Shown piece by piece: positions 1,421 through 63,672 of a stretch of 64,000 nt of DNA. The DNA lies in IMG/VR virus record IMGVR_UViG_3300018080_000099, positions 1 to 64,000 of that record, one strand, 5' to 3'. Source of the stretch: a virus. Position numbers and translations under genes: made by a program. Every line of letters starts with the position of its first letter. Position 1 is the stretch's first letter. The notes beneath the pieces were generated by a model. That model made no database searches, had not been told where the DNA came from, and saw only the letters and a list, made by a program, of their open reading frames with translations.

Positions 1421-1708
1421 ATGTATCGTTGTCAGTTCTGCGAATTTGAAACTAATGAACGAAGTTTAATCCACAAACATCATATCATACCTAAAGAGCT
1501 ACAAGGCTCCAACAAAGAAACAAATCGTGTCTATGTATGTGCTAACTGTCATGGACTAATCTACATTCCTGAAAGTCAATCAGGTCCGCATTCTATTCAG
1601 AAAGAAAACTCCATCATCATTAAGGGCTGGTTGTCATCTACCTCAGGCAGAGTTCTCCACTATTCTAACGGAGCTGAGGAAGATTATTTACTTGATAAAA
1701 ACCCTTGA
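1421..1708 (+). CDS. HNH-type endonuclease-like zinc-binding protein (95 aa)
   Basis: CQFC...HKHHIIPKE...N...CANCH motif pattern (HNH: H-H-N-H plus Cys pairs); RBS AAGGAGG upstream. Confidence 0.5.
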   Translation: MYRCQFCEFETNERSLIHKHHIIPKELQGSNKETNRVYVCANCHGLIYIPESQSGPHSIQKENSIIIKGWLSSTSGRVLHYSNGAEEDYLLDKNP

Positions 1709-1733
1709 CATTCCCTTGTGCAGATGTTATATT
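1705..1733 (+). promoter_or_regulatory. sigma70-type promoter TTGACA-17-TATATT (copy 1 of identical 37-bp element)
   Basis: aaaacccttgacattcccttgtgcagatgttatattat; identical copy at 1974-2002. Confidence 0.6.
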
Positions 1734-1761
1734 ATTATTGAACATTTGATAAGGAGAGGAT

Positions 1762-1968
1762 ATGTTGACAAAGAAGAAGATGGAACTTATTGCTGAGAAG
1801 ATTGAGCAACAGTTTGAAGTTGTTCAAGAAAATGCCATAAATGAATTGGTAGAAGATGGTCACCTTCACGCATCCGATGTTGATGGTGAATTGGTTAATT
1901 TTAAAGATATGATGTGTGAGTATCTTCAAGAGTTGATGTGGGAGAGAGTTCAAAAAGAATCTGAATAA
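1762..1968 (+). CDS. hypothetical acidic protein (68 aa)
   Basis: ORF track; RBS AGGAGAGGA; flanked by duplicated promoter. Confidence 0.5.
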   Translation: MLTKKKMELIAEKIEQQFEVVQENAINELVEDGHLHASDVDGELVNFKDMMCEYLQELMWERVQKESE

Positions 1969-1973
1969 AAACC

Positions 1974-2002
1974 TTGACATTCCCTTGTGCAGATGTTATA
2001 TT
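1974..2002 (+). promoter_or_regulatory. sigma70-type promoter TTGACA-17-TATATT (copy 2)
   Basis: identical to 1705-1733 element; precedes ligA RBS GAAAGGAG. Confidence 0.6.
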
Positions 2003-2045
2003 ATGGTATTGGTACTGAATACAGTACCTTTGAAAGGAGCCATAC

Positions 2046-3995
2046 ATGTCGGACAGAGAACCGTCAATGCCTTATGAGGATATGAAGCGCACCCTCATTC
2101 GTGCATGTGATTCGTACTACAACAAGTCTTTCTCTGAGATGTCAGACAAAGACTTCGATGCGCTGAAAGATGAGTTCAGGTATCATTGGCCTGACGACCC
2201 CTTCTTGAAAACCATCGGTGCTCCGCCTCCCGAAGTCTCGGAATGGGAAAAGACGAAGCACGCAATCCCCATGTATTCCTGCAACAAGGTGAACACTCCC
2301 GATGAACTGGAAGAGTGGGCGACTGGCAACGGTGGTGCCGATGCTGAGTTGATGACTTCAGAGAAGCTCGATGGTATCAGCATTGACATTCCGTACATGG
2401 AAGGAAACATCACCCATGCCATTACCCGCGGTGATGGTGAGATTGGCGAGAACATCCTGAGCAATGCCGTGAGGTTTCAGGGTGTCAAGCAGACTCTTCC
2501 CATCAAGTACTCTGGCAGTGTGCGTGGTGAAGTGATGATGAAGAAGTCTGACCTCAAGGCTGTGAATCTCATTTGTGAGGAGCGCGGCATCCATCCTTAC
2601 CAGAATGTAAGGAACGCGGCATCCGGCATCGCCCGAAATCAGGACGGAACATTCTCGGAATATCTGTTCGTGCAGTTCTACTATGCTTCGGGTGACTTCA
2701 AGACCAAGAAAGAGATGTTTGAATTCATTGAGAATACTCTTGGCTTGCCGACATCCCGACACTTCCACGGCAATCTTGAAACGGCTAAGGTTGTTTACAA
2801 TGAGTATGAGCAATCTATCAGAGCCAGTTTGGACCACGAGATTGATGGCTTGGTTGTGGAGTTCGACAATCTTGCCTTGCAAGAACAGCTTGGCATGAAG
2901 AACGAGAATCTTCGTGGACAGATTGCCTTCAAGTTTACAAGTGAGAAAGTCCAAACCAAAGTTGTCGGTGTGGATTGGCAACTTGGAACTCAGGGCAGAC
3001 TCACTCCTGTTCTGCATATGGAAGCAGTTGCTCTCGCGGGAGTCACTGTCAGAAAAGCTTCAGTCCACAATCTGCAAATCTTCTATGAGTTCAATTTCCA
3101 CGAAGGCGATACCATTTTGGTTGAAAGAGCCAACGATGTTATCCCTCAGGTGGTCAAGAATCTCAGCAACCATCCCGGACAGGAGAGAGGACAGAAGCTT
3201 ACTGTTCCGACTGAATGTCCTGTATGTGGTTCGCGCCCTGAGTTCACCGACAAGTTCCTGATGTGTGTCAATCCCGATTGTGCCGGTGGTAAGCTTGGAA
3301 GCCTTATCAAATGGGTGAAGAAGCTCGACCTCAAAGGCATTGGTGGAAGCACATTGGAGAGGCTTTACAATTCTGGGTATGTCCAAACCCCGGCAGACCT
3401 GTACAAGCTCAGGCCCGAAATGATATGCGAGATGGAAGGCTTCGGTCGTAGCTCTGCCAACAAAATCATAGACACTCTGAATGCCAAGAAGGAGCTTACC
3501 CTTGTTGAGTTCATTGGTGGATTGAACATGGTTGGATTTGGCAGGGGAACGGCAAAGAAGTTGATTAAGGGTGGTTATGATACGGTGGACAAGATAATCA
3601 ATGCTGGGATAGCTCAGATAGCTGAGGTAGGTGGTATCGGAGTTGTCACAGCCCAAAGCATACATTCTGGTTTGAAGAAAAAGGCAGACGTTATAGAGCA
3701 GTTGTTTGCCAATGGCATTACAATCAAGGAGGCGGTAAAGATGGGTTCAAAGGGTTCTACTCACCCACTCTCAGGCAAGTCTGTGGTGTTCACGGGCAAG
3801 TTGAGTCTGGTGAGAAAAGAAGCACAAGCAATGGTAGAATCAGTGGGTGGAAGTTGTCCTTCGTCAATCAGTCAGGACACCGACTACCTCGTGATTGCTG
3901 ACCCGACATCAACTTCTTCTAAGGCTCAGAAGGCCCGCAAGTGGGGCATCAATCTGATTGGAGAAGCTGAGTTCTTGGCAATGATGGGCAAGTAA
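2046..3995 (+). CDS. ligA: NAD+-dependent DNA ligase LigA (649 aa)
   Basis: KxDG adenylation motif (EKLDGISI), OB fold, Cys4 Zn finger (CPVCGS...CVNPDC), HhH repeats, C-terminal BRCT (KSVVFTGKL...). Confidence 0.9.
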   Translation: MSDREPSMPYEDMKRTLIRACDSYYNKSFSEMSDKDFDALKDEFRYHWPDDPFLKTIGAPPPEVSEWEKTKHAIPMYSCNKVNTPDELEEWATGNGGADAELMTSEKLDGISIDIPYMEGNITHAITRGDGEIGENILSNAVRFQGVKQTLPIKYSGSVRGEVMMKKSDLKAVNLICEERGIHPYQNVRNAASGIARNQDGTFSEYLFVQFYYASGDFKTKKEMFEFIENTLGLPTSRHFHGNLETAKVVYNEYEQSIRASLDHEIDGLVVEFDNLALQEQLGMKNENLRGQIAFKFTSEKVQTKVVGVDWQLGTQGRLTPVLHMEAVALAGVTVRKASVHNLQIFYEFNFHEGDTILVERANDVIPQVVKNLSNHPGQERGQKLTVPTECPVCGSRPEFTDKFLMCVNPDCAGGKLGSLIKWVKKLDLKGIGGSTLERLYNSGYVQTPADLYKLRPEMICEMEGFGRSSANKIIDTLNAKKELTLVEFIGGLNMVGFGRGTAKKLIKGGYDTVDKIINAGIAQIAEVGGIGVVTAQSIHSGLKKKADVIEQLFANGITIKEAVKMGSKGSTHPLSGKSVVFTGKLSLVRKEAQAMVESVGGSCPSSISQDTDYLVIADPTSTSSKAQKARKWGINLIGEAEFLAMMGK

Positions 3996-4040
3996 GTTCA
4001 GGCTCTCCTTGATATAAATACTTGTATCAAGGAGGGTGTT

Positions 4041-4250
4041 ATGGACTTACATCTCTGGTTACTTATCTACTTATCAGGAGCCGGTGCGACTGCACTGTTC
4101 TTCTGTATTGCTTATTTGTACTACTGGTACAATGAAAGTATCCGCTTTACCTTCAAGGACTTCTTGGGAGTCGTAGCTGGAACAGTATTGTGGCCCGGCT
4201 TCTGGGTCATATGGATTGCAAGCAAGGTAGGAGATTGGTTGACTTCATGA
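4041..4250 (+). CDS. small membrane protein (2 TM)
   Basis: hydrophobic helices; RBS AAGGAGGG. Confidence 0.45.
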   Translation: MDLHLWLLIYLSGAGATALFFCIAYLYYWYNESIRFTFKDFLGVVAGTVLWPGFWVIWIASKVGDWLTS

Positions 4251-5373: not shown

Positions 5374-5608
5374 ATTTGTTGAGCTAACCAAAGAGTTGCT
5401 TACAATTCAGGAGTCCCTCCCACCTAGTGACTTTCTCAGAAGTCGGATTAAAGTTCTCACGCAAGGTATCGAAAATGAATCCCTTGACTATGAAAAGGGG
5501 ATGACATATATTTTGGTTAATGCAAAGAAAGCCAAGCGCCCACAAAGCATTGCAGTATGGGCTAAGGTAATTAAGGCATTCAAGAGTTACTTTGAAGATA
5601 CCAAATAA
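5348..5608 (+). CDS. hypothetical protein (86 aa)
   Basis: in-frame ATG with RBS GGAGAAAAG inside ORF 5327..5608. Confidence 0.4.
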   Translation: MNRKETKNRFVELTKELLTIQESLPPSDFLRSRIKVLTQGIENESLDYEKGMTYILVNAKKAKRPQSIAVWAKVIKAFKSYFEDTK

Positions 5609-7586: not shown

Positions 7587-8156
7587 ATGAAAATCTTTGT
7601 TGACGTGGACACACAGGGAGACTTCGTCAATCCTGACGGAGCACTTGCAGTGCCAAATGCCGAAACCATCCGGCCCATTCTCGCCAACCTGACAAAGCTG
7701 GCGAAGGACCAAGACATTCCCATCATCAAAACGATGGACGAGCATGATGGTTCGGAACCTGAAATGTCGTGCAATGGTGGCCCTTTCCCTCTCCACTGTA
7801 TGGAAGGTACCGAGGGACAGGCGAGCATCATCGAAACCGGAACCAAGAAGGCAAAGATATTCACCAAGAAGTGTTACAATGTCTTTGACGAGAAGCTTGG
7901 GAATCCGTACATTGCCAACTGGCTCAGGGATAACAAAGTCACGGAAGCATGGGTGTACGGACTTGTCGGTAACATCTGTGTGGAAGCGGCAGTCATGGGC
8001 TTGGTAGGACATGGCATTAAGACTTTCGTCTTTGAGAATGCTGTGGTATGGATGGACTTGGATGAAGGCATCTTCGTGAAGGGGCCTGACAATAAGGAAC
8101 AGTCTGTTGCCAGAATGAGAAAGGCAGGCGCAATCTTCGCACAAGCGAGACTATAA
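7587..8156 (+). CDS. pncA: nicotinamidase / isochorismatase-family hydrolase (PncA-like)
   Basis: VDxQxDF N-terminal motif (KIFVDVDTQGDFV), conserved Lys and catalytic Cys context (GLVGNICVEAAV). Confidence 0.7.
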   Translation: MKIFVDVDTQGDFVNPDGALAVPNAETIRPILANLTKLAKDQDIPIIKTMDEHDGSEPEMSCNGGPFPLHCMEGTEGQASIIETGTKKAKIFTKKCYNVFDEKLGNPYIANWLRDNKVTEAWVYGLVGNICVEAAVMGLVGHGIKTFVFENAVVWMDLDEGIFVKGPDNKEQSVARMRKAGAIFAQARL

Positions 8157-8166
8157 AGGACGAATA

Positions 8167-55476: not shown

Positions 55477-55499
55477 TAAGGTATCAAAGGAGATGAGGA

Positions 55500-56174: not shown

Positions 56175-56192
56175 AAAAAGATAAAAAAGAGC

Positions 56193-56221
56193 TTGACAAC
56201 TCAGCGACAATGATGTATATT
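56193..56221 (+). promoter_or_regulatory. consensus promoter
   Basis: gcttgacaactcagcgacaatgatgtatatt. Confidence 0.55.
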
Positions 56222-56246
56222 ATTTGACATGAAAGGAGAAGAACCA

Positions 56247-56531: not shown

Positions 56532-56838
56532 GAAGCGCCAGTCGGTATTCGACCCCGACTATGCTCCCTACGGGACCTACAAAGGTCCCAAGGGGAGCCC
56601 TGACGAATGGAAGCAAGCCTTCCGTGAGATGTTTGGTTCGGTGGAGGAAGCTCAGGAAGCTCTGGGTAAGGACCACCCGCTTAACATCCTCGGATTGAAT
56701 CTTGGAGCTACGATAGAGCAAATCAAGGCGGCGTTCCGCAAGATGGCTCTGAAGTTCCATCCTGACAAAAACAAAGACCCGGAAGCTCCTTCGATGTTCC
56801 GGAAAATCTGTGCGGCATACAAAGTGCTCATGGGCTGA
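56527..56838 (+). CDS. J-domain (DnaJ-like) protein
   Basis: HPD tripeptide in KMALKFHPDKNKDPEA…KICAAYKVL; helix II/III pattern of J domain. Confidence 0.65.
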   Translation, partial: AKKRQSVFDPDYAPYGTYKGPKGSPDEWKQAFREMFGSVEEAQEALGKDHPLNILGLNLGATIEQIKAAFRKMALKFHPDKNKDPEAPSMFRKICAAYKVLMG

Positions 56839-56847
56839 AAAAAGTCC

Positions 56848-56876
56848 TTGACAAATCAGGTCGCGTGTTGTATATT
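56848..56876 (+). promoter_or_regulatory. consensus promoter
   Basis: ccttgacaaatcaggtcgcgtgttgtatatt. Confidence 0.55.
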
Positions 56877-56922
56877 AAGGGTGTTGAAGGAGGCACCCTT
56901 AACCACTCAAAGGAGTAGAGAG

Positions 56923-57285
56923 ATGCCACTCACGTACACGAAGGTCAACCGGCGGGAGGAAGTCAGCCGGGAGGAAGTCGAGCTGAAGCCATACGACCAC
57001 TGGGGAATGTTCACCAGTGCTGGCAACCGGAGACTCCGGACGCTGGCTCAGCAGCTGCTTGACAAGATGGAAAAGGAGACTGACCACCTTGCCCGCCAGC
57101 AGCTCATCGTCTGGTACCTGAAGAAGATTAACAAGGTATCCAGCTTCGAGACGTACAGCGAAGCCAGCGACACGGCAGTCCGCGAATACATCTGGGACTT
57201 CATAGTCAAGGTGTGTGGCTGTGTGGACATCAGTACCGGCACGGCTGACGACCTGTGGGAAAAGTACTACAGGCCGGAGTACTAG
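56923..57285 (+). CDS. hypothetical protein (120 aa)
   Basis: RBS CAAAGGAG; inside ORF 56848..57285. Confidence 0.5.
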   Translation: MPLTYTKVNRREEVSREEVELKPYDHWGMFTSAGNRRLRTLAQQLLDKMEKETDHLARQQLIVWYLKKINKVSSFETYSEASDTAVREYIWDFIVKVCGCVDISTGTADDLWEKYYRPEY

Positions 57286-57344
57286 GAAGTGACAGAAGTC
57301 AGGTAAGTCCGACTGAGCTAGAAAGAGAAAGTCGGACTTCCCTC

Positions 57345-57373
57345 TTGACATCCAACCTCAAAGGAGTTATATT
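57345..57373 (+). promoter_or_regulatory. consensus promoter (leaderless mRNA; AAGGAG lies in spacer)
   Basis: cttgacatccaacctcaaaggagttatatt; ATG 7 nt downstream. Confidence 0.5.
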
Positions 57374-57379
57374 TTAGAC

Positions 57380-57892
57380 ATGGAACAAAAGTACATCTCA
57401 CTTGCGAATGATATGTTGACGTTTGCCAAGACATTGTTAGAACGTGATGGCGGACTTCAGCCTGTCGTGTTCATTCTCAAGGAGGGCTTTGCACCAGCTG
57501 TCGAGCAACTTGAGATTGTTGATGAAGCTCAGAAGGAGCAGATGTTTGTAGCTCTCGGATGTGCAGCGGCAAAATCCGACATCGACGCTTTACTCTTTAT
57601 CAATGAGGGGTGGCTCCGCCGGGTGGATGCCAGCCAGCTCGACAAGGATGACTTTCAATATGAGAGTCCATCCATGTACCCGGAGTCAATGAGGGAAGAA
57701 TGTATCGTAGCTACCTTGATTGACTTTAAGGAATCAAAGGGCTATTCCTCATTCACTATCTTTACAAGGGAGAATGGGTTTAAGTTCAAGGATTCGGACG
57801 GGTTTGATGAAGCCAAAGGAATGACAACGGAAGTTACGTTGAATGCATATAACCAAGCATCCGCTTTACTATCTCAACAGAAGGAGGACTAA
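57380..57892 (+). CDS. hypothetical protein (170 aa)
   Basis: ORF track. Confidence 0.5.
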   Translation: MEQKYISLANDMLTFAKTLLERDGGLQPVVFILKEGFAPAVEQLEIVDEAQKEQMFVALGCAAAKSDIDALLFINEGWLRRVDASQLDKDDFQYESPSMYPESMREECIVATLIDFKESKGYSSFTIFTRENGFKFKDSDGFDEAKGMTTEVTLNAYNQASALLSQQKED

Positions 57893-58398
57893 TGTCCAAG
57901 CAGTCGTTCACCCATGAAGGAACTGAGTATGGCTCACGTTCCGAAGCCGCACGGGCTCTGCTTTCGCAGACCAACCCGGAGACCAAAAAGCCGTACACCT
58001 GTTCGGAAGTCGCCAAGATTGTCGGGATGACTCCGCAGACCGTGTACACCCAGACGGACGAGGGCAAAGCGAAAGTCGCTGCTCGTCGTGCCAAGTACCG
58101 CGCCATCAACCTCGCCAAGACCGGCAAGTACACGCAGGCAATGATTTGCGACCGTACGAAGCTCGAAGCCGGTGTCATGCGGAAGCTCCTGACAGAAGCC
58201 AACATCACCTGTCCGACCGCCAAGGAACTCGCTCAGTCTCAGAAGGAAGCGGAAGAGGCGAAGGCGAAGGAAGCCGAAGCAAAGAAGGCTGAAAAGGCGA
58301 AGGCAAAGGAAGAAGTAGCTCCCGCCGCGGCAGAAAAGAACACCAGCAAGGGCAAGGGGAACTCCCGGAAGGCAAAGTCCAAAGCTGACAAAAAGTAA
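57892..58398 (+). CDS. HTH protein, family D N-terminus + histone H1-like KAKEAEAKK tail
   Basis: YGSRSEAARALL…SEVAKIVGMTPQTVY; C-terminal Lys/Ala/Glu repeats. Confidence 0.5.
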   Translation: MSKQSFTHEGTEYGSRSEAARALLSQTNPETKKPYTCSEVAKIVGMTPQTVYTQTDEGKAKVAARRAKYRAINLAKTGKYTQAMICDRTKLEAGVMRKLLTEANITCPTAKELAQSQKEAEEAKAKEAEAKKAEKAKAKEEVAPAAAEKNTSKGKGNSRKAKSKADKK

Positions 58399-58433
58399 GC
58401 CAACTCCCTGACTGAGTGGCAGGGTGGAAGGGA

Positions 58434-58471
58434 CCGCCGCAACCTCTGATTCAAGTTGCGGCGGTTTTTTT
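58434..58471 (+). terminator. rho-independent terminator (CCGCCGCAAC…GUUGCGGCGG + U7)
   Basis: stem-loop + T-run. Confidence 0.7.
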
Positions 58472-58480
58472 ATTTTTCCC

Positions 58481-58509
58481 TTGACATTCCAGCTGGAATG
58501 AATTATATT
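58481..58509 (+). promoter_or_regulatory. consensus promoter upstream of ORF-less conserved element
   Basis: cccttgacattccagctggaatgaattatatt. Confidence 0.5.
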
Positions 58510-58515
58510 TTAAAT

Positions 58516-58566
58516 AACCTCAGGGGTGGGAACGGCGACCGAGCACTCCAGTTTAAGCGCTTAACC
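58516..58566 (+). ncRNA. candidate small non-coding transcript: AAUAACCUCAGGGGUGGGAACGGCGACCGAGCACUCCAGUUUAAGCGCUUAAC
   Basis: promoter with no ATG/ORF; same conserved element as - strand loci at 60057-60151, 63212-63272, 61665-61724. Confidence 0.3.
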
Positions 58567-58584
58567 AAATACCTGAAAAAGAGC

Positions 58585-58613
58585 TTGACATCTCAGCTCG
58601 AATGAATTATATT
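58585..58613 (+). promoter_or_regulatory. consensus promoter + conserved leader
   Basis: gcttgacatctcagctcgaatgaattatattatctgtacattcaaaggagatg. Confidence 0.6.
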
Positions 58614-58637
58614 ATCTGTACATTCAAAGGAGATGAC

Positions 58638-59045
58638 ATGGCAATCACAAAGGATTTTCTCGGAGCAGGCAAGGCAATCTTCACGGTTGCGAATCCTCAC
58701 GGGAAACACTATACCTTCAAGATTCGTAAGAAGAAGGATATGCCCTACTTCGTTTCCCTGCTCACTGGTCCCGACAACTATGCTAACTATACCTACCTTG
58801 GTATATACATCCCTGCACATGCCGAAGTGCGGCTGAGCACCAAGAGCCGGTACAATGCAGAGTCCCTGCCTGTCAAGGTGGTTCGATGGGCTATTAAGAT
58901 GATACACGAGGGCAAAGAGTTGCCTGAGGGATATAGCATCCGGCACGAGGGCAAATGTGCTCGGTGTGGGCGGCGACTCACTGACCCGGTATCAATCGAA
59001 CGTGGTTTCGGTCCTGAGTGCTGGAGACGTTCTGTCAATAGCTAG
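58638..59045 (+). CDS. hypothetical protein with C-terminal CxRCGRRLTDPVSIERGFGPEC zinc motif
   Basis: RBS CAAAGGAGATG; inside ORF 58602..59045. Confidence 0.5.
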   Translation: MAITKDFLGAGKAIFTVANPHGKHYTFKIRKKKDMPYFVSLLTGPDNYANYTYLGIYIPAHAEVRLSTKSRYNAESLPVKVVRWAIKMIHEGKELPEGYSIRHEGKCARCGRRLTDPVSIERGFGPECWRRSVNS

Positions 59046-59064
59046 AAAAAAGTGAAAATAACTA

Positions 59065-59093
59065 TTGACAAACCAGCTGGAATGGTGTATATT
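59065..59093 (+). promoter_or_regulatory. consensus promoter
   Basis: tattgacaaaccagctggaatggtgtatatt. Confidence 0.55.
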
Positions 59094-59146
59094 ATTACCA
59101 TGATTGAAAGATGTTCAACCTTACCACTCAAAGAAAGGGGCCTCGT

Positions 59147-60013
59147 ATGATGGCTTCAAAGCTGAAAGTCTCGAATGCCAAGAGCATCGAGGAAGTTCTT
59201 GAGTCCACCGGGATGAACTGGGATGCGGAGTCGCACCCTCTCGTTACCGGCGGCGGACTGGATGTGCCGAACTTCAAGGCGATGGTGCGGAGTGACAATT
59301 CACATGTCCTCGGCGTTGTCGGTTCGAAGTATCAGCCTGTCCAGAATTCACTCGCCTTCGGTTTCATGGACACCCTTGTTCAGAAGCACGATGCCGAATA
59401 CGAGAATGTCTACAGCCTGAAGGGCGGCGCGTATGTGATTGTTCAGGCTCGCATCCATCACGACTTCGAAGCCCGGCGCGGTGACAGGATTGCTTCCTAC
59501 ATCACCATGCTGAATTCCTTCGATGGCACTACCTCTTTCAAGGTGTACTTCACCCCTATCCGCCTGTTCTGCACCAATCAGCTCGGTGCCTCATGGCGGA
59601 AGAAGGCACAGTCCATCACGGTTCGCCACTCGGTGAATGCGAAAGAGAATGCCGAAGAGGGTTTCCGGGTTCTCTGCTCGGCTCAGGAATACTTCGAACA
59701 GTTTCAGGAGAAGGCACGCGTGCTTGCTCAGAAGGCAGTCGACCAGAAGATGGTTGACAAATTCCTGAAGGAAGTTCTCGGTGAAGCCGAATCAACCCAG
59801 AAGAAGAACCAGCATGAGAAGGTGACGGAACTGTTCCAGCACGGCAAGGGCAACAAGGGCGAAACGATGTGGGACTTGTACAATGGCGTGACGGAGTATG
59901 TCGACCACCACGGCACGAAGGACGACGACAAGCGCCTTGCCTCGGCTCTCATGGGACACGGGCTCAACCTGAAGGACAAGGCTTGGAATGCGGCTCTTGC
60001 CCTGACAAACTAG
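59147..60013 (+). CDS. DUF932-like (TIGR03299 phage/plasmid-like) protein
   Basis: VSNAKSIEEVLESTGMNWD…AMVRSDNSHVLGVVGSKYQPVQN…MLNSFDGTTSFKVYFTPIRLFCTNQL resembles DUF932 conserved core; RBS AAAGAAAGGGG. Confidence 0.45.
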   Translation: MMASKLKVSNAKSIEEVLESTGMNWDAESHPLVTGGGLDVPNFKAMVRSDNSHVLGVVGSKYQPVQNSLAFGFMDTLVQKHDAEYENVYSLKGGAYVIVQARIHHDFEARRGDRIASYITMLNSFDGTTSFKVYFTPIRLFCTNQLGASWRKKAQSITVRHSVNAKENAEEGFRVLCSAQEYFEQFQEKARVLAQKAVDQKMVDKFLKEVLGEAESTQKKNQHEKVTELFQHGKGNKGETMWDLYNGVTEYVDHHGTKDDDKRLASALMGHGLNLKDKAWNAALALTN

Positions 60014-60056
60014 AACTCCTGACAAAGGGGAGGGGCAACCCTCCCCTCCACTTAAC

Positions 60057-60090
60057 AAAAGAGAACCGGGAATTCCCAGTTCTCTTTTTT
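60057..60090. terminator. bidirectional terminator (GAGAACCGGGAAUUCCCAGUUCUC flanked by A4/U6)
   Basis: stem-loop with T-run on both strands; second hairpin GGGGAGGGGCAACCCUCCCCUCC at 60027-60049. Confidence 0.65.
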
Positions 60091-60151
60091 GTCAGCCCCA
60101 GTTTAACCGCTTAAATTTTCGTGCTACCTCGCCGTTCCCACCCCTAAGGTT
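60091..60151 (-). ncRNA. candidate small non-coding transcript from - strand promoter (60158-60186): AAUAACCUUAGGGGUGGGAACGGCGAGGUAGCACGAAAAUUUAAGCGGUUAAACUGGGG then terminator
   Basis: consensus promoter, no ORF, ends at bidirectional terminator. Confidence 0.3.
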
Positions 60152-60211
60152 ATTTAAAATATAATACATGGCGAAGCAAAAGTCAATAGGAAAAATAAAT
60201 AAAATTAGCTA

Positions 60212-60240
60212 TTGACAATGGAGCTGAAATGTATTATATT
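60212..60240 (+). promoter_or_regulatory. consensus promoter (leaderless), divergent from - promoter 60158-60186
   Basis: ctattgacaatggagctgaaatgtattatatt. Confidence 0.55.
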
Positions 60241-60246
60241 ATTACC

Positions 60247-60459
60247 ATGATGATAAAATCAAAATACACAGGCAAAATGATAAAGGGTTCAGTCTCATTC
60301 TGGTATGGCTCACGGCTCATTGGAGAGGCAGTCGTATACGATGGTGAGGGAGTCCCTGAGGCATTCGAGAGAGAACGTAGGTACTGCGAGTATTTCAACA
60401 GGGAGGCACTGCCTTACCTGTTCCGGTACACCAATGCAATCAAACACGGATGGGAATAA
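60247..60459 (+). CDS. small protein (70 aa), probable leaderless start
   Basis: ATG 7 nt after -10; ORF track start 60229 lies in promoter. Confidence 0.45.
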   Translation: MMIKSKYTGKMIKGSVSFWYGSRLIGEAVVYDGEGVPEAFERERRYCEYFNREALPYLFRYTNAIKHGWE

Positions 60460-60570
60460 TGGCACGTAAAGGCAACGGAAACAAACCAGCTACAAAGGAA
60501 TGGGCTAAGCATCTTCGCAAGGCAGGCAAGCGGGATGCCAACAAGCGGCAGAGAAAAGCCAACAAAAGCC

Positions 60571-60599
60571 TTGACAATTAGTCCTGAATGTTGTATATT
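60571..60599 (+). promoter_or_regulatory. consensus promoter
   Basis: ccttgacaattagtcctgaatgttgtatatt. Confidence 0.55.
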
Positions 60600-60621
60600 A
60601 CCTGTAACAACAGGAGATGAT

Positions 60622-60798
60622 ATGAACCAGAACATAACTCAAGCCAAAGCCCAGCGGCTCCAAGACATCGCCAGTGCGAAGGCTTCGCACGAGCGGCAGG
60701 CACGCAGGGAGCAGCGGCGTATCAACCACGAGGATGTCAAGTTCCTTCAGGCGGCATTGGAGGCACCGGACGTCGAAACCTTTCTGAGGATAGTATGA
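60622..60798 (+). CDS. small protein (58 aa)
   Basis: RBS CAGGAGATG; inside ORF 60535..60798. Confidence 0.4.
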   Translation: MNQNITQAKAQRLQDIASAKASHERQARREQRRINHEDVKFLQAALEAPDVETFLRIV

Positions 60799-61067
60799 AC
60801 ATCAAATCAATCGAGTACCGCACTGTCGAAGTTCCCGAAGTGACGAAAGTCAAGTTCAGGAAGTTCCCGGAAGGCGACGTCATCGCCCTGTTCCCTGAGG
60901 AGGAAGCAGACCTGCGAGGCAACTGCATGTCCTACATGTGCATAGGACAGCACGGAGCAGCCAGCCCTGAGTTGATTGAGGAATTGACTCCTGCAACTCC
61001 AGCAGAATACAAGGCAATCAAAGAGGAACTGGAGCGCATCGGTTATCACCTTAGCGTGGAGCAATAA
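60795..61067 (+). CDS. hypothetical protein (90 aa)
   Basis: ATGA overlap. Confidence 0.5.
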   Translation: MNIKSIEYRTVEVPEVTKVKFRKFPEGDVIALFPEEEADLRGNCMSYMCIGQHGAASPELIEELTPATPAEYKAIKEELERIGYHLSVEQ

Positions 61068-61318
61068 TGACTTACGGAAAGATACTTGAAATCGAGGACT
61101 ACCTCGAACTGGACTGCAGGCTGTTCGTTAACGGTATCAGCGGGAAGCCAGCTCACAGCGACTCCTACATGACTGTACTGGAATACTCCCGGCTAGGTGA
61201 AGTCGACAAGTCAAGGTTCAGCCAGCAGGAGTGGCTGGAAGCCTGCGAGCACTGGCTATCCAATGTCAACTGCGGGCCGGCCCTGAAACTCTTTGCCAAG
61301 TGGTTCAAAAGAAAATAA
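61067..61318 (+). CDS. hypothetical protein (83 aa)
   Basis: TAATG overlap. Confidence 0.5.
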   Translation: MTYGKILEIEDYLELDCRLFVNGISGKPAHSDSYMTVLEYSRLGEVDKSRFSQQEWLEACEHWLSNVNCGPALKLFAKWFKRK

Positions 61319-61326
61319 AATAAGCC

Positions 61327-61355
61327 TTGACAACTCAGCCAGAATAAGGTATATT
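61327..61355 (+). promoter_or_regulatory. consensus promoter (leaderless)
   Basis: ccttgacaactcagccagaataaggtatatt. Confidence 0.55.
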
Positions 61356-61361
61356 ATTGGT

Positions 61362-61496
61362 ATGAAACAAGTAACCTTCAAAGAAATCAACGGGAGAAAG
61401 GTTCCCAAGTTCCGGGGCGGCAGGGTAACGGTTCGCTTCCGGGATAAGACAAAGTACTCCCGTAAACTCAAACACAAAGGAGTGCAGGATGGATAA
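61362..61496 (+). CDS. small basic protein (44 aa), leaderless
   Basis: ATG 7 nt after -10; in frame with ORF 61293..61496. Confidence 0.35.
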   Translation: MKQVTFKEINGRKVPKFRGGRVTVRFRDKTKYSRKLKHKGVQDG

Positions 61497-61650
61497 CCTG
61501 TTTGACGTTGACATGACAGAACTGAAGGACAACTCCCTTGCCGAAATCTTTCAATCAGACGGCGAGGACGGCAGCTGGGACGAGGACGGACGCTGGGATG
61601 ATGATGACTGGCTGGAACAGCAGGCGGCACTTTCCGCTGGGGACTATTAG
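61489..61650 (+). CDS. small acidic protein (53 aa; DGEDGSWDEDGRWDDDDW)
   Basis: ATG overlapping upstream stop; below cut-off. Confidence 0.35.
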   Translation: MDNLFDVDMTELKDNSLAEIFQSDGEDGSWDEDGRWDDDDWLEQQAALSAGDY

Positions 61651-61664
61651 TCCCCAGTTTTTTT
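61639..61664. terminator. terminator (GGGGACUAUUAGUCCCC + U7)
   Basis: stem-loop + T-run. Confidence 0.65.
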
Positions 61665-61724
61665 ACCCCTCAGTTTAAGCGCTTAAATAAATGACCGAGC
61701 TTGCCGTTCCCACCTCCCTCGGTT
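61665..61724 (-). ncRNA. candidate small non-coding transcript from - strand promoter (61731-61759): …UAACCGAGGGAGGUGGGAACGGCAAGCUCGGUCAUUUAUUUAAGCGCUUAAACUG
   Basis: consensus promoter, no ORF, conserved element. Confidence 0.3.
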
Positions 61725-61783
61725 AATTTAAATATACTTCATTTCAGCTCAAATGTCAATAGTTATTTTCATTTATTTTTCGC

Positions 61784-61812
61784 TTGACTTTTGAGCTGAA
61801 ATGTATTATATT
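61784..61812 (+). promoter_or_regulatory. consensus promoter + conserved leader
   Basis: cgcttgacttttgagctgaaatgtattatatttaagtacattcaacaaaaggagat. Confidence 0.55.
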
Positions 61813-61839
61813 TAAGTACATTCAACAAAAGGAGATAAC

Positions 61840-62091
61840 ATGGCGACTAAAAAATACAAGTGGTATGCTGCTGTTCGTTTTAAGCTGAGCAACCGTATAG
61901 GTTCACCCACTGCTATTTTTGTATGGGATAAGTTTAAAAACAAATGGATACACACATGTATGGCTACTCCTAAACCTCTTGCCTATACAACTGCTCGTCG
62001 TAAATGTATTGAAAGGAAGAAACTTGATAAACAGGTAAAAGGCTGGATTGTTATTCGCGAGGATGAATATGCAAGAAACGGGTTTAATTAA
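61840..62091 (+). CDS. hypothetical protein (83 aa)
   Basis: ORF track. Confidence 0.5.
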   Translation: MATKKYKWYAAVRFKLSNRIGSPTAIFVWDKFKNKWIHTCMATPKPLAYTTARRKCIERKKLDKQVKGWIVIREDEYARNGFN

Positions 62092-62099
62092 AAAAGCCC

Positions 62100-62128
62100 T
62101 TGACTTTTCAGTTCAAATGATGTATATT
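62100..62128 (+). promoter_or_regulatory. consensus promoter
   Basis: cccttgacttttcagttcaaatgatgtatatt. Confidence 0.55.
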
Positions 62129-62152
62129 ATTGGTATCAGAAAAGGAGGCAAG

Positions 62153-62737
62153 ATGGAATACAAAGGCTACACCATTGACATTGAGCAGGACTACTCTGCT
62201 GAGGACCCCCGCGACTGGGACAATCTCGGTACAATGATATGCTTCCACAAGCGCTATCAGTTGGGCGACAAGGGGCATGGAGTTGATACTAGCGATTATT
62301 CAGGCTGGGCTGAGATGGAAGCAGAACTTCGCAAAGAATATGCCGTTGTCCTTCCCCTGTACCTTTACGACCACAGCGGCATAACCATGAAGGTAACTCC
62401 CTTCTTTTGCCCTTGGGATTCCGGGCAAGTCGGCTATATCGTGGTAAGTCGCGAGACTATCCTGAAAGAGTATGGCGGCAGTCGCTTGACAAGTCAGAAA
62501 CTTGAGAAGGCGAAGTCGGTGCTCATTGGGGAAGTCGAGACTTACGACATGTACCTCTGCGGCGAAGTCTACAGTTACATGGTACCGGGACTGGCAGAGG
62601 AGGATGATAACTACGACTACATGTGCAGTGGCTACTACGGGCATGAGGAAGCAGTCAAGGCGGCAAAGGAAGTTATCGACTCATACATAGCCGCAAAGGA
62701 AAAGAACTGCGGCGTACAGCAGGAATTGGCTGTATGA
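62153..62737 (+). CDS. hypothetical protein (194 aa)
   Basis: RBS AAAAGGAGGCAAG; inside ORF 62048..62737. Confidence 0.55.
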   Translation: MEYKGYTIDIEQDYSAEDPRDWDNLGTMICFHKRYQLGDKGHGVDTSDYSGWAEMEAELRKEYAVVLPLYLYDHSGITMKVTPFFCPWDSGQVGYIVVSRETILKEYGGSRLTSQKLEKAKSVLIGEVETYDMYLCGEVYSYMVPGLAEEDDNYDYMCSGYYGHEEAVKAAKEVIDSYIAAKEKNCGVQQELAV

Positions 62738-62877
62738 AATTCTATTTCAAGTCCGAAGCCAGCCTTATTGGCGTAGCCCAGTTTGTTGAAGCGGATAGCA
62801 AGTCGGAAGCCGCTGAACACTTGGCTGACGTATACGGAATCACAAAGCAGGAAGCCACCGAACTATTGGAGGATTGA
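62734..62877 (+). CDS. small protein (47 aa)
   Basis: ATGA overlap; below cut-off. Confidence 0.35.
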   Translation: MKFYFKSEASLIGVAQFVEADSKSEAAEHLADVYGITKQEATELLED

Positions 62878-62943
62878 CAAATGATTGACGCTATCGGAAC
62901 TCTAACGGCTTTTGCACTCCTGTACTTTATTTTCAAATAAGCC

Positions 62944-62972
62944 TTGACAAGTCAGCTCCAATGATGTATATT
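62944..62972 (+). promoter_or_regulatory. consensus promoter + conserved leader
   Basis: gccttgacaagtcagctccaatgatgtatattattggcgtacttaacaaaggagccgagatgg. Confidence 0.6.
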
Positions 62973-62999
62973 ATTGGCGTACTTAACAAAGGAGCCGAG

Positions 63000-63182
63000 A
63001 TGGACCAAGAGATTCGCCAGCAGTTCCAGACCCTTGCCTGCCGACTTTCCCCTGAGAACCTTCACTGCGACGGGGAGATAAGCCACGCACAGGCGATGAA
63101 AAAGTACCGTGCCATCATGCGCGAATGGCGCCAGCTGGAAAAGAAGGTCGGACGCAAGGTTGACGAGTCCGAAGTCTGGTAA
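63000..63182 (+). CDS. small protein (60 aa)
   Basis: inside ORF 62961..63182; RBS AAAGGAGCC. Confidence 0.5.
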   Translation: MDQEIRQQFQTLACRLSPENLHCDGEISHAQAMKKYRAIMREWRQLEKKVGRKVDESEVW

Positions 63183-63188
63183 GTTCAA

Positions 63189-63211
63189 GGGGAGGCAACT
63201 CCCCTTTTTTT
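63189..63211. terminator. terminator (GGGGAGGCAACUCCCC + U7)
   Basis: stem-loop + T-run. Confidence 0.7.
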
Positions 63212-63272
63212 AAGCCCCCCAGTTTAACCGCTTAAATTTCTTTGCTACCTGTCCGTTCCCACCCGTGAGGTT
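63212..63272 (-). ncRNA. candidate small non-coding transcript from - strand promoter (63279-63307): AAUAACCUCACGGGUGGGAACGGACAGGUAGCAAAGAAAUUUAAGCGGUUAAACUGGGGGG
   Basis: consensus promoter, no ORF, conserved element. Confidence 0.3.
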
Positions 63273-63332
63273 ATTAAAAATATACTACATGCCGGCCGAA
63301 ATGTCAAGCTCTAATTTATTTTTATTTTCCTA

Positions 63333-63361
63333 TTGACAATTCAGCCAGCATGTATTATATT
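63333..63361 (+). promoter_or_regulatory. consensus promoter + conserved leader
   Basis: ctattgacaattcagccagcatgtattatattattggtacattcaacgaggagatacgatgg. Confidence 0.55.
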
Positions 63362-63387
63362 ATTGGTACATTCAACGAGGAGATACG

Positions 63388-63630
63388 ATGGACACTGCAA
63401 CCGAAGTCAAGAACGTATATGTGCCGATAGACAATCCTACCGATGACAGCGGCAAGCGCTGGCTGATATTCAGGTACGGCGAGGAAGATAAGAACCCGTG
63501 GCAGTGGCCCAAGGTCATGACGTTCGGCGGCAGGCTGTACAAGTGGATGTCATGGAACTCCGATACCTACCGGGTGAACTATAAGGAGATAAGCGAGACG
63601 GAAGTCGCTACAGTATACCGGCGAAAATAA
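63388..63630 (+). CDS. hypothetical protein (80 aa)
   Basis: ORF track. Confidence 0.5.
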   Translation: MDTATEVKNVYVPIDNPTDDSGKRWLIFRYGEEDKNPWQWPKVMTFGGRLYKWMSWNSDTYRVNYKEISETEVATVYRRK

Positions 63631-63643
63631 GTTCACTTTTCCC

Positions 63644-63672
63644 TTGACAACTCAGCTCGAATGATGTATATT
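63644..63672 (+). promoter_or_regulatory. consensus promoter + conserved leader
   Basis: cccttgacaactcagctcgaatgatgtatattatctgtacattcaacaaaggagatgcaagatg. Confidence 0.6.

Follow-up and report, generated by a model that had tools for sequence, protein, structure and literature searches.

The window analysed here, a 64-kb stretch of an uncultivated phage-like genome of ~264 kb, is studded with closely similar bipartite promoters of the sigma70/sigmaA type. We consider it probable (roughly 0.78, judged from sequence features) that these sites are read by the RNA polymerase holoenzyme of the host, and that each belongs to a standard cassette for high-output expression. Because the window showed no virion genes, the designation as a phage rests on PHROG hits, on homologues among huge phages and IMG/VR records, and on the ~264-kb size.

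On both strands of the window, TTGACA-N16-18-TATATT has 30 exact matches, whereas 100 dinucleotide shuffles give an expectation of 0.03 and never more than 1. The spacing is 17 bp at 29 of the 30 sites (18 bp at 21883), and 24 of them lie within 50651-63672. Relaxing one base per hexamer (TTGAC[AT] / TATA[ATC]T) gives 39 sites, adding clear copies at 51262, 53559(-), 54746, 60186(-), 61784 and 62100, and doubtful ones at 5484, 18907 and 43278(-). About 36 of the 39 are judged credible, and 30 of these are packed into 13 kb (50.65-63.67 kb; Table 1). The motif scan that the first-pass annotation had proposed, run here on the 64-kb window, thus bears out its claim of a near-identical promoter used at least 30 times; the near-perfect TTGACA ascribed to its named sites fails at 61784, which reads TTGACT.

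At 30 of the 39 sites, what comes next in the correct orientation is either a start codon preceded at 3-12 nt by an SD or an ATG no more than 2 nt from the predicted +1; this counts 58481, whose gene lies 122 nt off beyond an A-type element and the next promoter. The sites sit in intergenic gaps of the source annotation's independent gene calls, the genes behind them are mostly small and mostly unannotated, and terminator-like hairpins occur 3' of several transcription units. Divergent pairs are common among the copies, their -35 elements lying 24-25 bp apart. The 13-kb promoter-dense region adjoins a strand-switch.

Table 1. Promoter copies, non-coding elements, palindromes and doubtful matches in the window.
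Feature	Position	Strand	Context
Promoter copy	1705-1733	+	68-aa ORF 1762-1968 behind; 22-nt leader, AAGGAG
Promoter copy	1974-2002	+	NAD-dependent DNA ligase 2046-3995 behind; 33 bp identical to 1705 copy
Promoter copy	13277-13305	+	3' of strong terminator hairpin; 301-aa gene 13323-14228 behind
Promoter copy	17039-17067	+	Canonical leader ATTGGTACATTCAAAAGGAG; ORF from 17094
Promoter copy	18447-18475	+	ATG abuts -10
Promoter copy	21883-21912	+	Sole 18-bp spacer; AAA ATPase gene (end 23461) behind; relative L015 has a syntenic promoter
Weaker variant TTGACA-18-TATCAT	50411-50440	-	Faces leftward gene block (start 50371)
Promoter copy	50651-50679	-	B-type non-coding element behind
Promoter copy	50734-50762	+	Canonical leader; 93-aa ORF 50792-51073
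Promoter copy	51177-51205	-	B-type non-coding element behind
Promoter copy (TTGACT)	51262-51290	+	ATG 51297 (53 codons) at predicted +1; candidate leaderless start
Promoter copy	51902-51930	+	Canonical leader; 144-aa ORF from 51961
Promoter copy	53071-53099	-	67-aa ORF, start 53035
Promoter copy (TTGACT)	53531-53559	-	Canonical leader; 131-aa ORF, start 53503
Promoter copy	53718-53746	+	Gene start 53767/53774
Promoter copy	54360-54388	+	Second leader type ATTACCATGA.., 56 nt; 57-aa ORF 54451-54624
Promoter variant (TATACT)	54746-54774	+	55-aa ORF 54814-54981
Promoter copy	55084-55112	-	A-type non-coding element behind
Promoter copy	55395-55423	-	78-aa ORF, start 55367; divergent partner of 55448
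Promoter copy	55448-55476	+	SprT-like protein 55500-56174
Promoter copy	56193-56221	+	Offset-7 ATG shares the frame of SD-led ATG 56247; DnaJ-domain gene 56524-56838 in same operon
Promoter copy	56848-56876	+	ORF 56923-57285
Promoter copy	57345-57373	+	ATG 57380 at predicted +1; 170 aa, Ea47-like
Promoter copy	58481-58509	+	A-type element behind; tandem with 58585; spacer contains perfect 16-bp palindrome CATTCCAGCTGGAATG
Promoter copy	58585-58613	+	Canonical leader; DUF6011 protein 58638-59045
Promoter copy	59065-59093	+	Second leader type, 47 nt; DUF932 protein 59147-60013
Promoter copy (TTGACT)	60158-60186	-	A-type element behind; divergent partner of 60212
Promoter copy	60212-60240	+	ATG 60247 at predicted +1, 70 codons
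Promoter copy	60571-60599	+	ORFs 60622-61318
Promoter copy	61327-61355	+	ATG 61362 at predicted +1, 44 codons; source annotation calls same ATG
Promoter copy	61731-61759	-	A-type element behind; 91% inverted repeat of 61784 copy, 24 bp away
Promoter copy (TTGACT)	61784-61812	+	Canonical leader; 83-aa ORF 61840-62091
Promoter copy (TTGACT)	62100-62128	+	194-aa ORF 62153-62737 (phrog_6186)
Promoter copy	62944-62972	+	Canonical leader; 60-aa ORF 63000-63182
Promoter copy	63279-63307	-	A-type element behind; divergent partner of 63333
Promoter copy	63333-63361	+	Canonical leader; 80-aa ORF 63388-63630
Promoter copy	63644-63672	+	Canonical leader; 65-aa ORF 63702-63899
B-type element	50562-50650	-	ACUGAAAC.., hairpin 1, GGGGAAC helix, palindrome
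B-type element	51090-51176	-	Behind promoter 51177-51205
A-type element	55022-55083	-	GTGAACGG .. TTTAAGCGGTTAAA
A-type element	58510-58571	+	Own palindrome 58552-58565, 33 bp 5' of next -35
A-type element	60096-60157	-	Hairpin with U-tract directly after
A-type element	61668-61730	-	Behind promoter 61731-61759
A-type element	63217-63278	-	Behind promoter 63279-63307
Palindrome GTTAACCGCTTAAC	50700-50713	.	Midway between divergent promoters 50679(-) and 50734(+)
Palindrome	51228-51241	.	Between divergent promoters 51205(-) and 51262(+)
Palindrome	51868-51881	.	34 bp 5' of -35 of promoter 51902
Doubtful match	5484-5512	+	TTGACT..TATATT within coding sequence, without family-type flanks
Doubtful match	18907-18934	+	Spacer of 16 bp and TATAAT; not followed by a gene start
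Doubtful match	43250-43278	-	TTGACT-17-TATAAT within leftward small-gene block

In the flanks, A-rich tracts lie 5-10 and 14-19 nt 5' of the -35, and in 21 of 29 copies the base just before the -35 is C. Spacers in the window have the consensus ..TCAGCT..AATG..G, the -10 is extended to TATATTAT, and the 7th base after it is a purine at 27/29. Typically there follows either an A/C-rich leader of 17-24 nt with AAGGAG or an ATG that coincides exactly with the predicted +1. The conserved leader reported earlier survives in a looser form: its exact 21-mer has only two matches at up to three mismatches, because the copies vary by small indels and begin TG or GG, but ..GTAC(A)TTCAAC(A)AAGGAG.. is present at all 8 of the leader sites then named, and the gapped motif GTAC-N2-5-AAC-N1-5-GGAG has 9 matches where 0.31 would be expected, 7 of these behind promoters. 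A second leader type starts with ATTACCATGA (56 nt at the 54360 copy, 47 nt at 59065); the ATTACCATGA starts at 54395 and 59100 were rejected as leaderless genes, since they open ORFs of only 19 and 16 codons and belong to this leader type. The two copies said to be identical over 37 bp do flank ORF 1762-1968, but the exact identity of 1705 and 1974 extends over 33 bp (CCTTGACATTCCCTTGTGCAGATGTTATATTAT), with 93% over 43 nt after a 1-nt shift.

At 51297, 57380, 60247 and 61362, which open ORFs of 53, 170, 70 and 44 codons, respectively, the A of the ATG is the 7th nucleotide after the -10. Across the window phage and related phages, 18 of 123 promoters place an ATG at offset 6 after the -10, compared with 1 and 2 at offsets 5 and 7 and none at offsets 10-12; for 12 of these 18, the ORF so opened is 35 codons or longer. 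This sharp peak supports the prediction of leaderless starts. For the four sites originally proposed, both the ATG at the predicted +1 and the clade-wide peak speak in favour, with the exception that 57380 has AAGGAG 13 nt upstream, within the promoter spacer.

The same TTGACA-17-TATATT architecture is conserved in related metagenomic phages, whose proteins are 35-69% identical to those of the window phage. Their arrays can be as dense as that of the window: L160 has 35 sites in 13.2 kb, L138/L151 has 24 in a 15.5-kb contig and L117/147/148 has 21, while L013 and L015 have 5 each, one before the syntenic AAA ATPase gene. For the spacers, identity amounts to 0.44-0.67 inside one genome and to 0.29-0.42 across genomes. 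Because each genome has its own spacer consensus (TCAGCT..AATG in the window, TGAAAT in L160, CCATGATG in L138 and TTCTGGCTTTCC in L117), the extended identity is lineage-specific and not required by the polymerase. The extended identity described by the first-pass annotation therefore holds within the window genome, but its spacer part is not common to the related phages.

We propose that each cassette would comprise, in order, an UP-element-like A-tract, cTTGACA, a 17-bp spacer, TATATTAT and a purine start 7 nt on, ending in a leader that is short, unstructured and A/C-rich and carries AAGGAG 5-7 nt before the ATG, or else in an ATG at +1. With ~30 cassettes in ~13 kb, each gene or mini-operon could be transcribed independently. 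Transcription would start immediately upon DNA entry, and by analogy we infer an early or host-takeover/accessory region. The similarity beyond the hexamers would not be imposed by the polymerase, and may be maintained within each genome by duplication, gene conversion or a lineage-specific factor.

The host type suggested earlier, with a classical sigma70 and 16S anti-SD, is consistent with the sigma70/sigmaA features and with strong SD use: a core SD precedes 74% of called genes of at least 60 aa (a value inflated because start choice itself used the SD) versus 14% of all ATGs. The DnaA boxes cited in its favour are unenriched overall in the window (22 versus 16.6 expected), with one tight cluster at 49643-49705. 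The argument against Bacteroidetes-type promoters is upheld, as the Bacteroidota-type motif is not enriched in the window (TAnnTTTG, 46 versus 39.7 expected; bipartite form, 2 versus 0.63).

Seven promoter copies in the window, overlooked in the earlier annotation, have no ORF behind them and are followed instead by a conserved non-coding element of 60-90 nt, built of a GGGGAAC core and then the palindrome TTTAAGCGSTTAAA. The element is also present in related phages, and its longer form has a hairpin backed by covariation; among curated RNA families in Rfam it has no match.

These seven copies count against reading by the host polymerase, as do the -10 elements, almost always TATATT and not TATAAT in all four genomes, and the genome-specific spacer conservation, which could point to an additional phage-specific reader. 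Such a component, either a sigma70-family factor or a repressor or activator acting on the spacer or through TTTAAGCGSTTAAA upstream of four -35 elements, would make the array a co-regulated regulon, switched on or off together. The spacer consensus, kept within each genome and different among related ones, would fit this, and in the window it shows partial dyad symmetry about AGCT (0.44 complementary versus ~0.25 at other centres), with a perfect 16-bp palindrome at 58485-58500; its half-sites, however, do not covary beyond column composition (3.49 versus 3.56 pairs in shuffles). TTTAAGCGSTTAAA is over-represented, found in 10 places in 13 kb (19 strand-matches versus 0.89 expected), and lies a fixed 33-34 bp 5' of the -35 at 50734, 51262, 51902 and 58585, centred near -62, but it is near only a minority of the promoters. 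The cluster encodes HTH-like and zinc-ribbon proteins (weak hits), whereas no sigma factor or RNA polymerase gene was found among the 40 window proteins scanned; the analysis covered 64 kb plus 20 kb of flanks of the 264-kb contig. The hexamers are the universal housekeeping consensus, so a special sigma is unnecessary, and we regard a phage-specific component as unlikely.

Compatible with reading by the host polymerase, and different from it solely in what maintains the identity of the copies, is the idea that the repeats are mainly mobile or recombinogenic cassettes, as proposed for the PeSLs discussed below. Promoter activity would be real, and copy identity a by-product of duplication, gene conversion and cassette exchange that shuffle small genes. 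Similarity is higher within than between genomes even before homologous genes (58585 and L160 8034 before a DUF6011 gene; 54360 and L151 2975 before a 57-aa gene), the 1705 and 1974 copies have 33 bp in common, 60212 matches L005:11092 without a mismatch over at least 44 bp, composite 159-nt repeat units join an element to a divergent promoter pair, and PeSLs offer a precedent (PMC2839356, PMC4122927). Yet over 45-60 nt the identity of most copies is only 60-85%, their exact runs being short, three other assemblies of the window phage show zero differences over 2-14 kb and no promoter-bounded indel, and the upstream stem-loop that is part of the PeSL definition accompanies only some copies; we hold this idea as tentative, with odds of somewhat under even. 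It is very improbable that the sites are not promoters at all, and instead another dispersed repeat (a MITE, or a site for protein binding, packaging or partition) resembling the sigma70 consensus. Dispersal, extended similarity and frequent inverted pairs would suit such a repeat, but the peaks of conservation coincide exactly with the two hexamers, 17 bp apart, the spacer differs from genome to genome, and orientation and SD/ATG distance are consistent at ~30 sites.

The same promoter before many, mostly small genes is a known phage strategy, and the closest analogue appears to be the PeSL (promoter-early stem-loop) cassette of T4-like phages (Arbiol et al. 2010, PMC2839356; Comeau et al. 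2014, PMC4122927). PeSLs are strong sigma70 promoters by experiment (PMC2839356), and the role in recombination and shuffling proposed for them (PMC2839356, PMC4122927) is the one that the first-pass annotation suggested here. Both families comprise dozens of sigma70-consensus copies per genome, alike beyond the hexamers, AT-rich upstream and followed by an SD and start codon, concentrated in plastic regions before small genes with no known function. In the window, in contrast, the stem-loop is not constant, divergent pairs with the 24-25 bp separation described above are common, some copies drive the conserved non-coding element and an ATG at +1 is frequent; neither a relationship of this phage to T4-like phages nor recombination and mini-circles were observed.

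Other large virulent phages with early promoters for the host polymerase include T5 and SPO1, the latter in its host-takeover module. Those of T4 are likewise read by the host enzyme (PMC2988021). Like such promoters, the window copies have a -35 and -10 close to consensus and an A/T-rich enhancement upstream, cluster before small (putatively early) genes and share additional positions conserved within a phage, but differ in a -10 of TATATT(AT), not TATAAT, and their time class is assigned by analogy only. For the B-type transcripts the predicted 5' start is ACUGAAAC/U, similar to an 8-nt 5' handle of a crRNA. Phage RNA anti-CRISPRs and solitary repeat units (Camara-Wilpert et al. 2023, PMC10651486) are similarly short phage-encoded RNAs with their own promoters and a hairpin before a conserved tail, here ..GGGGAAC. 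Hairpin 1 of the window elements differs from these in varying between copies within one genome, and the likeness is a lead, not a finding. For the candidate leaderless genes, the mRNA of lambda cI transcribed from PRM is a leaderless counterpart, its start codon likewise standing at the transcription start (predicted, here) without an SD. Unlike in lambda, an ATG at the predicted +1 recurs at 18 of 123 promoters across this phage clade, beside very strong SD-led genes.

The promoter family is genuine and far from a chance pattern. A motif scan of the window for TTGACA-N16-18-TATATT returned 30 sites where 0.03 were expected, in agreement with the at least 30 uses counted by the first-pass annotation; the spacer is 17 bp long in 29 of these sites and 18 bp in one. 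Allowing one relaxed base per hexamer gave 39 sites in the window, and 36 were taken as family members, those at 5484, 18907 and 43278 being doubtful. Of the 36 credible copies, 30 are packed into roughly 13 kb of small genes (50,651-63,672), an average of about one every 430 bp. To the right, the cluster continues for about 2.3 kb outside the window before it stops, and no family sites occur in the 10 kb to the left of the window. Copies are 60-85% identical to one another. A promoter pair described earlier as identical over 37 bp (1705 and 1974) is near-identical, with an exact match of 33 bp.

The sequence of the sites is that of sigma70/sigmaA promoters. The -35 hexamer is TTGACA in 30 sites and TTGACT in additional copies, the -10 TATATT matches TATAAT at five of six positions with A2 and T6 invariant, and the spacer keeps to 17 +/- 1 bp. 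Aligned sites have A-tracts at 5-10 and 14-19 nt 5' of the -35, as in UP elements, a C directly 5' of the -35, a spacer consensus of ..TCAGCT..AATG..G in the window and a -10 extended to TATATTAT; the seventh base after the -10 is a purine in 27 of 29 sites. Together with the ATG peak at that position (see below), this purine points indirectly to a predicted transcription start 6-8 nt after the -10. Recognition of -35 and -10 hexamers 17 bp apart, with an A-tract 5' of them, characterises housekeeping-sigma holoenzymes, not single-subunit or phiKZ/AR9-type phage polymerases. Because the sites show this pattern, they are read here as putative host-polymerase promoters. No sigma factor or RNA polymerase subunit was found among the 40 larger ORFs scanned in the window.

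In the source's own annotation, the promoter sites fall between the called genes. A start codon is the next correctly oriented feature at 30 of the 39 sites of the relaxed scan; it was counted if a Shine-Dalgarno (SD) sequence lay 3-12 nt upstream or if it fell within 2 nt of the predicted +1. Where an SD is present, it is mostly AAGGAG, 5-7 nt from the start. For 58481, the gene assigned by the script is 122 nt away, behind an A-type element (see below) and the next promoter. Terminator-like hairpins end several of the putative transcription units. Nameable products of the cluster are SprT-like, DnaJ-domain, DUF6011, DUF932 and Ea47-like proteins; in a Pfam scan of 10 larger cluster genes, three had no match at E <= 0.01 and four others had sub-threshold matches only. 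The most likely explanation of the family is a set of early-gene cassettes of host-sigma70 type, carried by a clade of uncultivated jumbo phages. The host polymerase would read the sites as promoters, and 50.6-66 kb, by analogy with T4, T5 and SPO1, would be an early or accessory region with almost all of its small genes transcribed as separate units. The promoters thus read provide a ready map of transcription units in the accessory region of an uncultivated jumbo phage.

The conserved leader proposed in the first-pass annotation is present with small indels at all eight sites claimed for it, although the literal 21-mer has only two matches. A gapped leader motif occurs nine times against 0.31 expected, and the typical leader is 17-24 nt long, A/C-rich and unstructured. 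A second leader type of about 50 nt starts with ATTACCATGA and is found at 54360, 59065 and, in the sequence beyond the window (L005), at 11092; at 60212 the same opening runs directly into a 70-codon ORF. Leaders of this second type, starting ATTACCATGAT(GAT)TGAAAGA, occupy 54389-54450, 59094-59146 and 60241-60250 of the window and 11121-11170 of L005. Their +1 ATG opens an ORF of just 19 or 16 codons in two copies (54395 and 59100, respectively) and of at least 70 codons in the other two, and the sequence could encode a leader peptide or act as an RNA element.

At each of the four sites proposed to be leaderless (51297, 57380, 60247 and 61362), the ATG does start at the seventh nucleotide after the -10. 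Of 123 distinct promoters pooled from the window and its relatives, 18 place an ATG on the predicted +1, at an offset of exactly 6 nt from the -10; the neighbouring offsets hold one case (5 nt), two cases (7 nt) and none (10-12 nt), and a second, broad peak at 22-32 nt corresponds to SD-led genes. Twelve of the 18 ATGs open ORFs of at least 35 codons. This offset peak supports leaderless initiation at the predicted start sites of the four candidates. Three points limit this support. At 57380 an AAGGAG also occurs 13 nt upstream, within the promoter spacer; the +1 ATGs at 54395 and 59100 open only the short ORFs mentioned above; and some relatives, several in number, have an SD-led ATG a few codons further on that shares the reading frame of the +1 ATG. 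The sharp peak offers a clean natural data set with which to study leaderless initiation in phages.

Homologues of the nicotinate phosphoribosyltransferase (NAPRTase; 68-69% identity) led to two syntenic contigs with a GC content of about 35% (L013 and L015). In each of them, TTGACA-17-TATAWT occurs five times at gene starts, including once before the orthologous AAA ATPase. A metagenome scan with the non-coding element described below recovered early-region contigs of more relatives, whose early proteins are 35-67% identical to those of the window (see table for their promoter sites). The DUF932 protein, used as query in the first metagenome scan, found no relatives, and a promoter plus GTAC pattern gave 92 single, unrelated matches in IMG/VR. 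Three other assemblies contain identical fragments, so no strain variation was seen.

What the genomes have in common is limited to the hexamers, with the -10 in its TATATT(AT) form, and an A-rich stretch upstream. The spacer consensus is specific to each genome, with mean spacer identities of 0.44-0.67 within and 0.29-0.42 between genomes, and homologous genes bear the spacer type of their own genome, as in a DUF6011 gene (58585 in the window and 8034 in the relative L160) and a gene for a 57-aa protein (54360 in the window and 2975 in L151). The extended identity noted earlier among the window copies is therefore present but confined to its own genome, and it is not a polymerase requirement. 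Its cause is either a lineage-specific reader or homogenisation within the genome through duplication or gene conversion. A dyad operator in the spacer was given low weight, because the symmetry exists at the consensus level only and half-sites do not covary. Such genome-specific signatures make the concerted evolution of regulatory DNA directly testable.

Most promoters precede genes, but seven copies in the window and one just beyond it precede conserved non-coding sequence, and the source annotation likewise calls no gene in these gaps. The elements are of two types. The A-type (five copies, about 55 nt) reads ..GG(U)GGGAACGG.. and, after about 20 nt, UUUAAGCGSUUAAAC. The B-type (about 85 nt) consists of a 5' ACUGAAACAUCU, a hairpin, GGGGAAC, a second helix and the A-type palindrome. 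Most elements are driven by the leftward partner of a divergent promoter pair, the -35 hexamers of which are 24-25 bp apart, and the predicted transcripts head toward the terminator of the converging gene.

Non-coding elements and upstream palindromes in the window and adjoining sequence (L005), and promoter sites in early-region contigs of related metagenomic phages
Feature	Sequence	Position	Strand	Remark
A-type element	window	55083-55022	-	
A-type element	window	58510-58571	+	
A-type element	window	60157-60096	-	
A-type element	window	61730-61668	-	
A-type element	window	63278-63217	-	
B-type element	window	50650-50562	-	
B-type element	window	51176-51090	-	
B-type element	L005	10954-10870	-	third copy
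Palindrome upstream of rightward promoter	window	50700-50713		centre ~-62
Palindrome upstream of rightward promoter	window	51228-51241		centre ~-62
Palindrome upstream of rightward promoter	window	51868-51881		centre ~-62
Palindrome upstream of rightward promoter	window	58552-58565		centre ~-62
Promoter sites	L160			35 in 13.2 kb searched
Promoter sites	L138/L151 (one contig)			24 in 15.5 kb searched
Promoter sites	L117/L147/L148			21 in 12.6 kb searched

The elements are kept in relatives (L160, L138, L151, L117 and L146-L148), for a total of 28 distinct copies. Searched against Rfam 15, the elements of the window and relatives had no match at the gathering score or at E <= 1; the only Rfam matches are sub-threshold, to SorX (54958-55015, E 0.089) and to CsrC in L160. 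The CsrC-like match (246-506, minus strand) scores 27 bits with an E value of 1.6e-4, against a gathering score of 61, and may reflect merely GGA-rich sequence. A strict element pattern found nothing in IMG/VR, and a loose one found three matches, all chance and coding. In 185,579 bacterial and archaeal genomes there were 26 matches, all attributable to chance and none beside a promoter, and thus no host or prophage lead.

B-type structure was tested on eight related sequences from three genomes with 500 shuffles. The first hairpin has compensatory changes at four of five pairs, 93% paired cells against 84% in shuffles (0/500 as high) and a covariation score of 0.377 against 0.204 (0/500), and slid controls fall far below it. 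In the second helix, which pairs GGGGAACYA with UGGUCUUY, GU/GC exchanges occur and one pair is compensatory. Coming from only eight related sequences, this is moderate but not conclusive evidence that the B-type is an RNA with a covarying hairpin. A structured RNA was rejected for the A-type, which has no consensus fold; a helix proposed by hand is 79% paired but does not covary, and the B-type model finds A-types weakly (E 0.02-0.8). What is conserved in the A-type may therefore be the sequence itself, of RNA or of DNA. The terminal palindrome, TTTAAGCGSTTAAA, is 14 bp long and occurs at 10 places in the window (19 strand-matches against 0.89 expected). It stands alone 33-34 bp 5' of the -35 at 50734, 51262 and 51902, has a double role at 58585 and is exactly midway between divergent promoters in two cases, which suggests a site for a dimeric DNA-binding protein.

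Several functions could be considered for these sequences. The element is a candidate regulatory or decoy small RNA, and its hairpin, GGGGAAC tail and ACUGAAAC 5' end may recall crRNA features; compare the RNA anti-CRISPRs or solitary repeat units (PMC10651486), which resemble the CRISPR repeat of the host in sequence and structure. Antisense or interference transcription into the converging gene is another candidate, and the palindrome is a candidate protein roadblock or operator. A broader reading, to which we give about two chances in five, is that the promoter array would be just the visible part of an undescribed, clade-specific early-region architecture of bidirectional promoter cassettes, concerted in-genome spacers and a new family of 60-90-nt non-coding RNAs with a possible regulatory or counter-defence role. 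The putative RNAs would number at least eight copies in this phage and occur in three or more other metagenomic phage genomes; each would carry a 5' hairpin that varies and covaries, a GGGGAAC(GG) core that does not vary, and the terminal palindrome. Either the RNAs or the palindrome could serve regulation or counter-defence, for example as a decoy of a host RNA-guided or RNA-binding system or as a roadblock or operator that sets transcript ends. If the element is a real RNA, it represents a new multi-copy phage RNA family amid likely counter-defence genes.

The promoters also constrain the host. The first-pass annotation argued for a classical housekeeping sigma and anti-SD and against Bacteroidetes-type promoters. 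In line with the latter point, neither the Bacteroidota -7 motif nor the bipartite version of it is enriched over chance. Promoter type and SD use fit the former, although the identity of the host is not given thereby. An SD motif precedes 74% of called genes against 14% of all ATGs, the 74% being biased upward because start choice used the SD. The combination of a housekeeping-sigma consensus with SD-dependent translation contrasts with the very AT-rich huge phages (L001-L003, GC 24-36%) that have a related vault-like protein, in which we found no consensus sigma70 promoters and no elements. Since these relatives lack the elements, the idea of connecting the small RNAs with the vault-protein homologue was dropped. 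NAPRTase homologues were rejected as a guide to the host, their named matches being scattered across phyla. Canonical DnaA boxes, also cited for the host type, form one cluster at 49643-49705 but are not enriched overall (22 against 16.6). The cluster (plus strand) comprises two perfect TTATCCACA boxes 11 bp apart and two one-mismatch boxes within 63 bp, and adjoins an imperfectly repeated TCCGAATCC/TCCATATC tract and a strand switch; this stretch, with 49580-50100, could be an origin-like region.

An exact-protein look-up placed the window on the ENA metagenome contig ERZ27256796:k141_2651556 (263,805 bp). Genes run rightward to about 40.5 kb, a leftward small-gene block extends to about 50.4 kb, and small genes, mostly rightward, follow from 50.6 kb on. 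Phage-like content includes an NAD-dependent DNA ligase (2046-3995), NAD-salvage enzymes, a DNA methylase and many PHROG families, with HNH and GIY-YIG nucleases in the flank. The source is probably a jumbo phage, though this is not proven, the window having no virion gene. A 998-aa protein at 10224-13220 (plus strand) has a major-vault-protein shoulder, a Vault_3 repeat and SPFH-like regions; within the phage collection, relatives occur only in three 'uncultured phage' genomes of 462-735 kb (about 44% identity), and others are on two IMG/VR contigs. An NAD-related set (7587-10239, 14415-14927 and 15511-16683; L005 14459-15019) comprises isochorismatase/nicotinamidase-like, NAD synthase, NMNAT-like, Nudix, NADAR and NAPRTase proteins, with a PnuC-like transporter just outside the window, and may recall phage NAD+ reconstitution as counter-defence (bioRxiv 10.1101/2024.02.11.579819). 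A MoxR-type AAA ATPase with a DUF2201 VWA/metallopeptidase partner, a patatin-like phospholipase, a cpYpsA SLOG protein and a nucleoside 2-deoxyribosyltransferase-like protein (28344-30976, 31490-32368, 34642-35130 and 23765-24259) have possible counter-defence or nucleotide-modification functions. The window has no tRNA genes; despite this, RNA-repair or tRNA-related enzymes occur at 19381-20013, 25554-26330 and L009 6001-8393, namely an RlaP-like nucleotidyltransferase, a Thg1-like protein and a CCA-adding/poly(A) polymerase family member split by a GIY-YIG gene. At 44000-48000 (minus strand) about 20 tandem, tightly packed genes encode proteins of 60-80 aa, several of them paralogous, with direct repeats of 203-224-bp period and strongly negative GC skew; this block contains no family-type promoters.

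The closest described system is the promoter-early stem-loop (PeSL) cassette of T4-like phages. PeSLs occur in about 50 copies per genome, consist of a sigma70-consensus promoter with AT-rich upstream sequence, a stem-loop and a downstream SD, are concentrated before ORFans in hyperplastic regions and were shown by experiment to be very strong promoters (PMC2839356); they have been proposed as agents of modular shuffling (PMC2839356; PMC4122927). By that definition (PMC2839356), the window copies share the sigma70-like promoter, the AT-rich upstream region and the downstream SD/ATG, and 30 of about 36 are found within 13 kb of small genes, where seven of the 10 larger ones scanned lack a solid Pfam match. 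Unlike PeSLs, they do not reside in a T4-like (Tevenvirinae-type) genome: no GenBank phage matches the window at the nucleotide level, and its protein relatives are on uncultured huge-phage and IMG/VR contigs. The stem-loop does not seem to be a constant part. Clear hairpins lie upstream of 13277, 51902, 56193, 57345 and 58481, the spacer of the last being palindromic, and the mean upstream folding energy of -12.9 kcal/mol is no better than the -14.7 of random sequence. The recombination proposed for PeSLs involves indels, swaps and mini-circles; here no such event was observed among mutually identical assemblies and copies of 60-85% identity. PeSL-style promoter cassettes thus exist outside T4-like phages, and what goes beyond the known kind is the genome-specific spacers, the sharp +1 ATG peak and, above all, the promoter-driven non-coding element with its palindrome.
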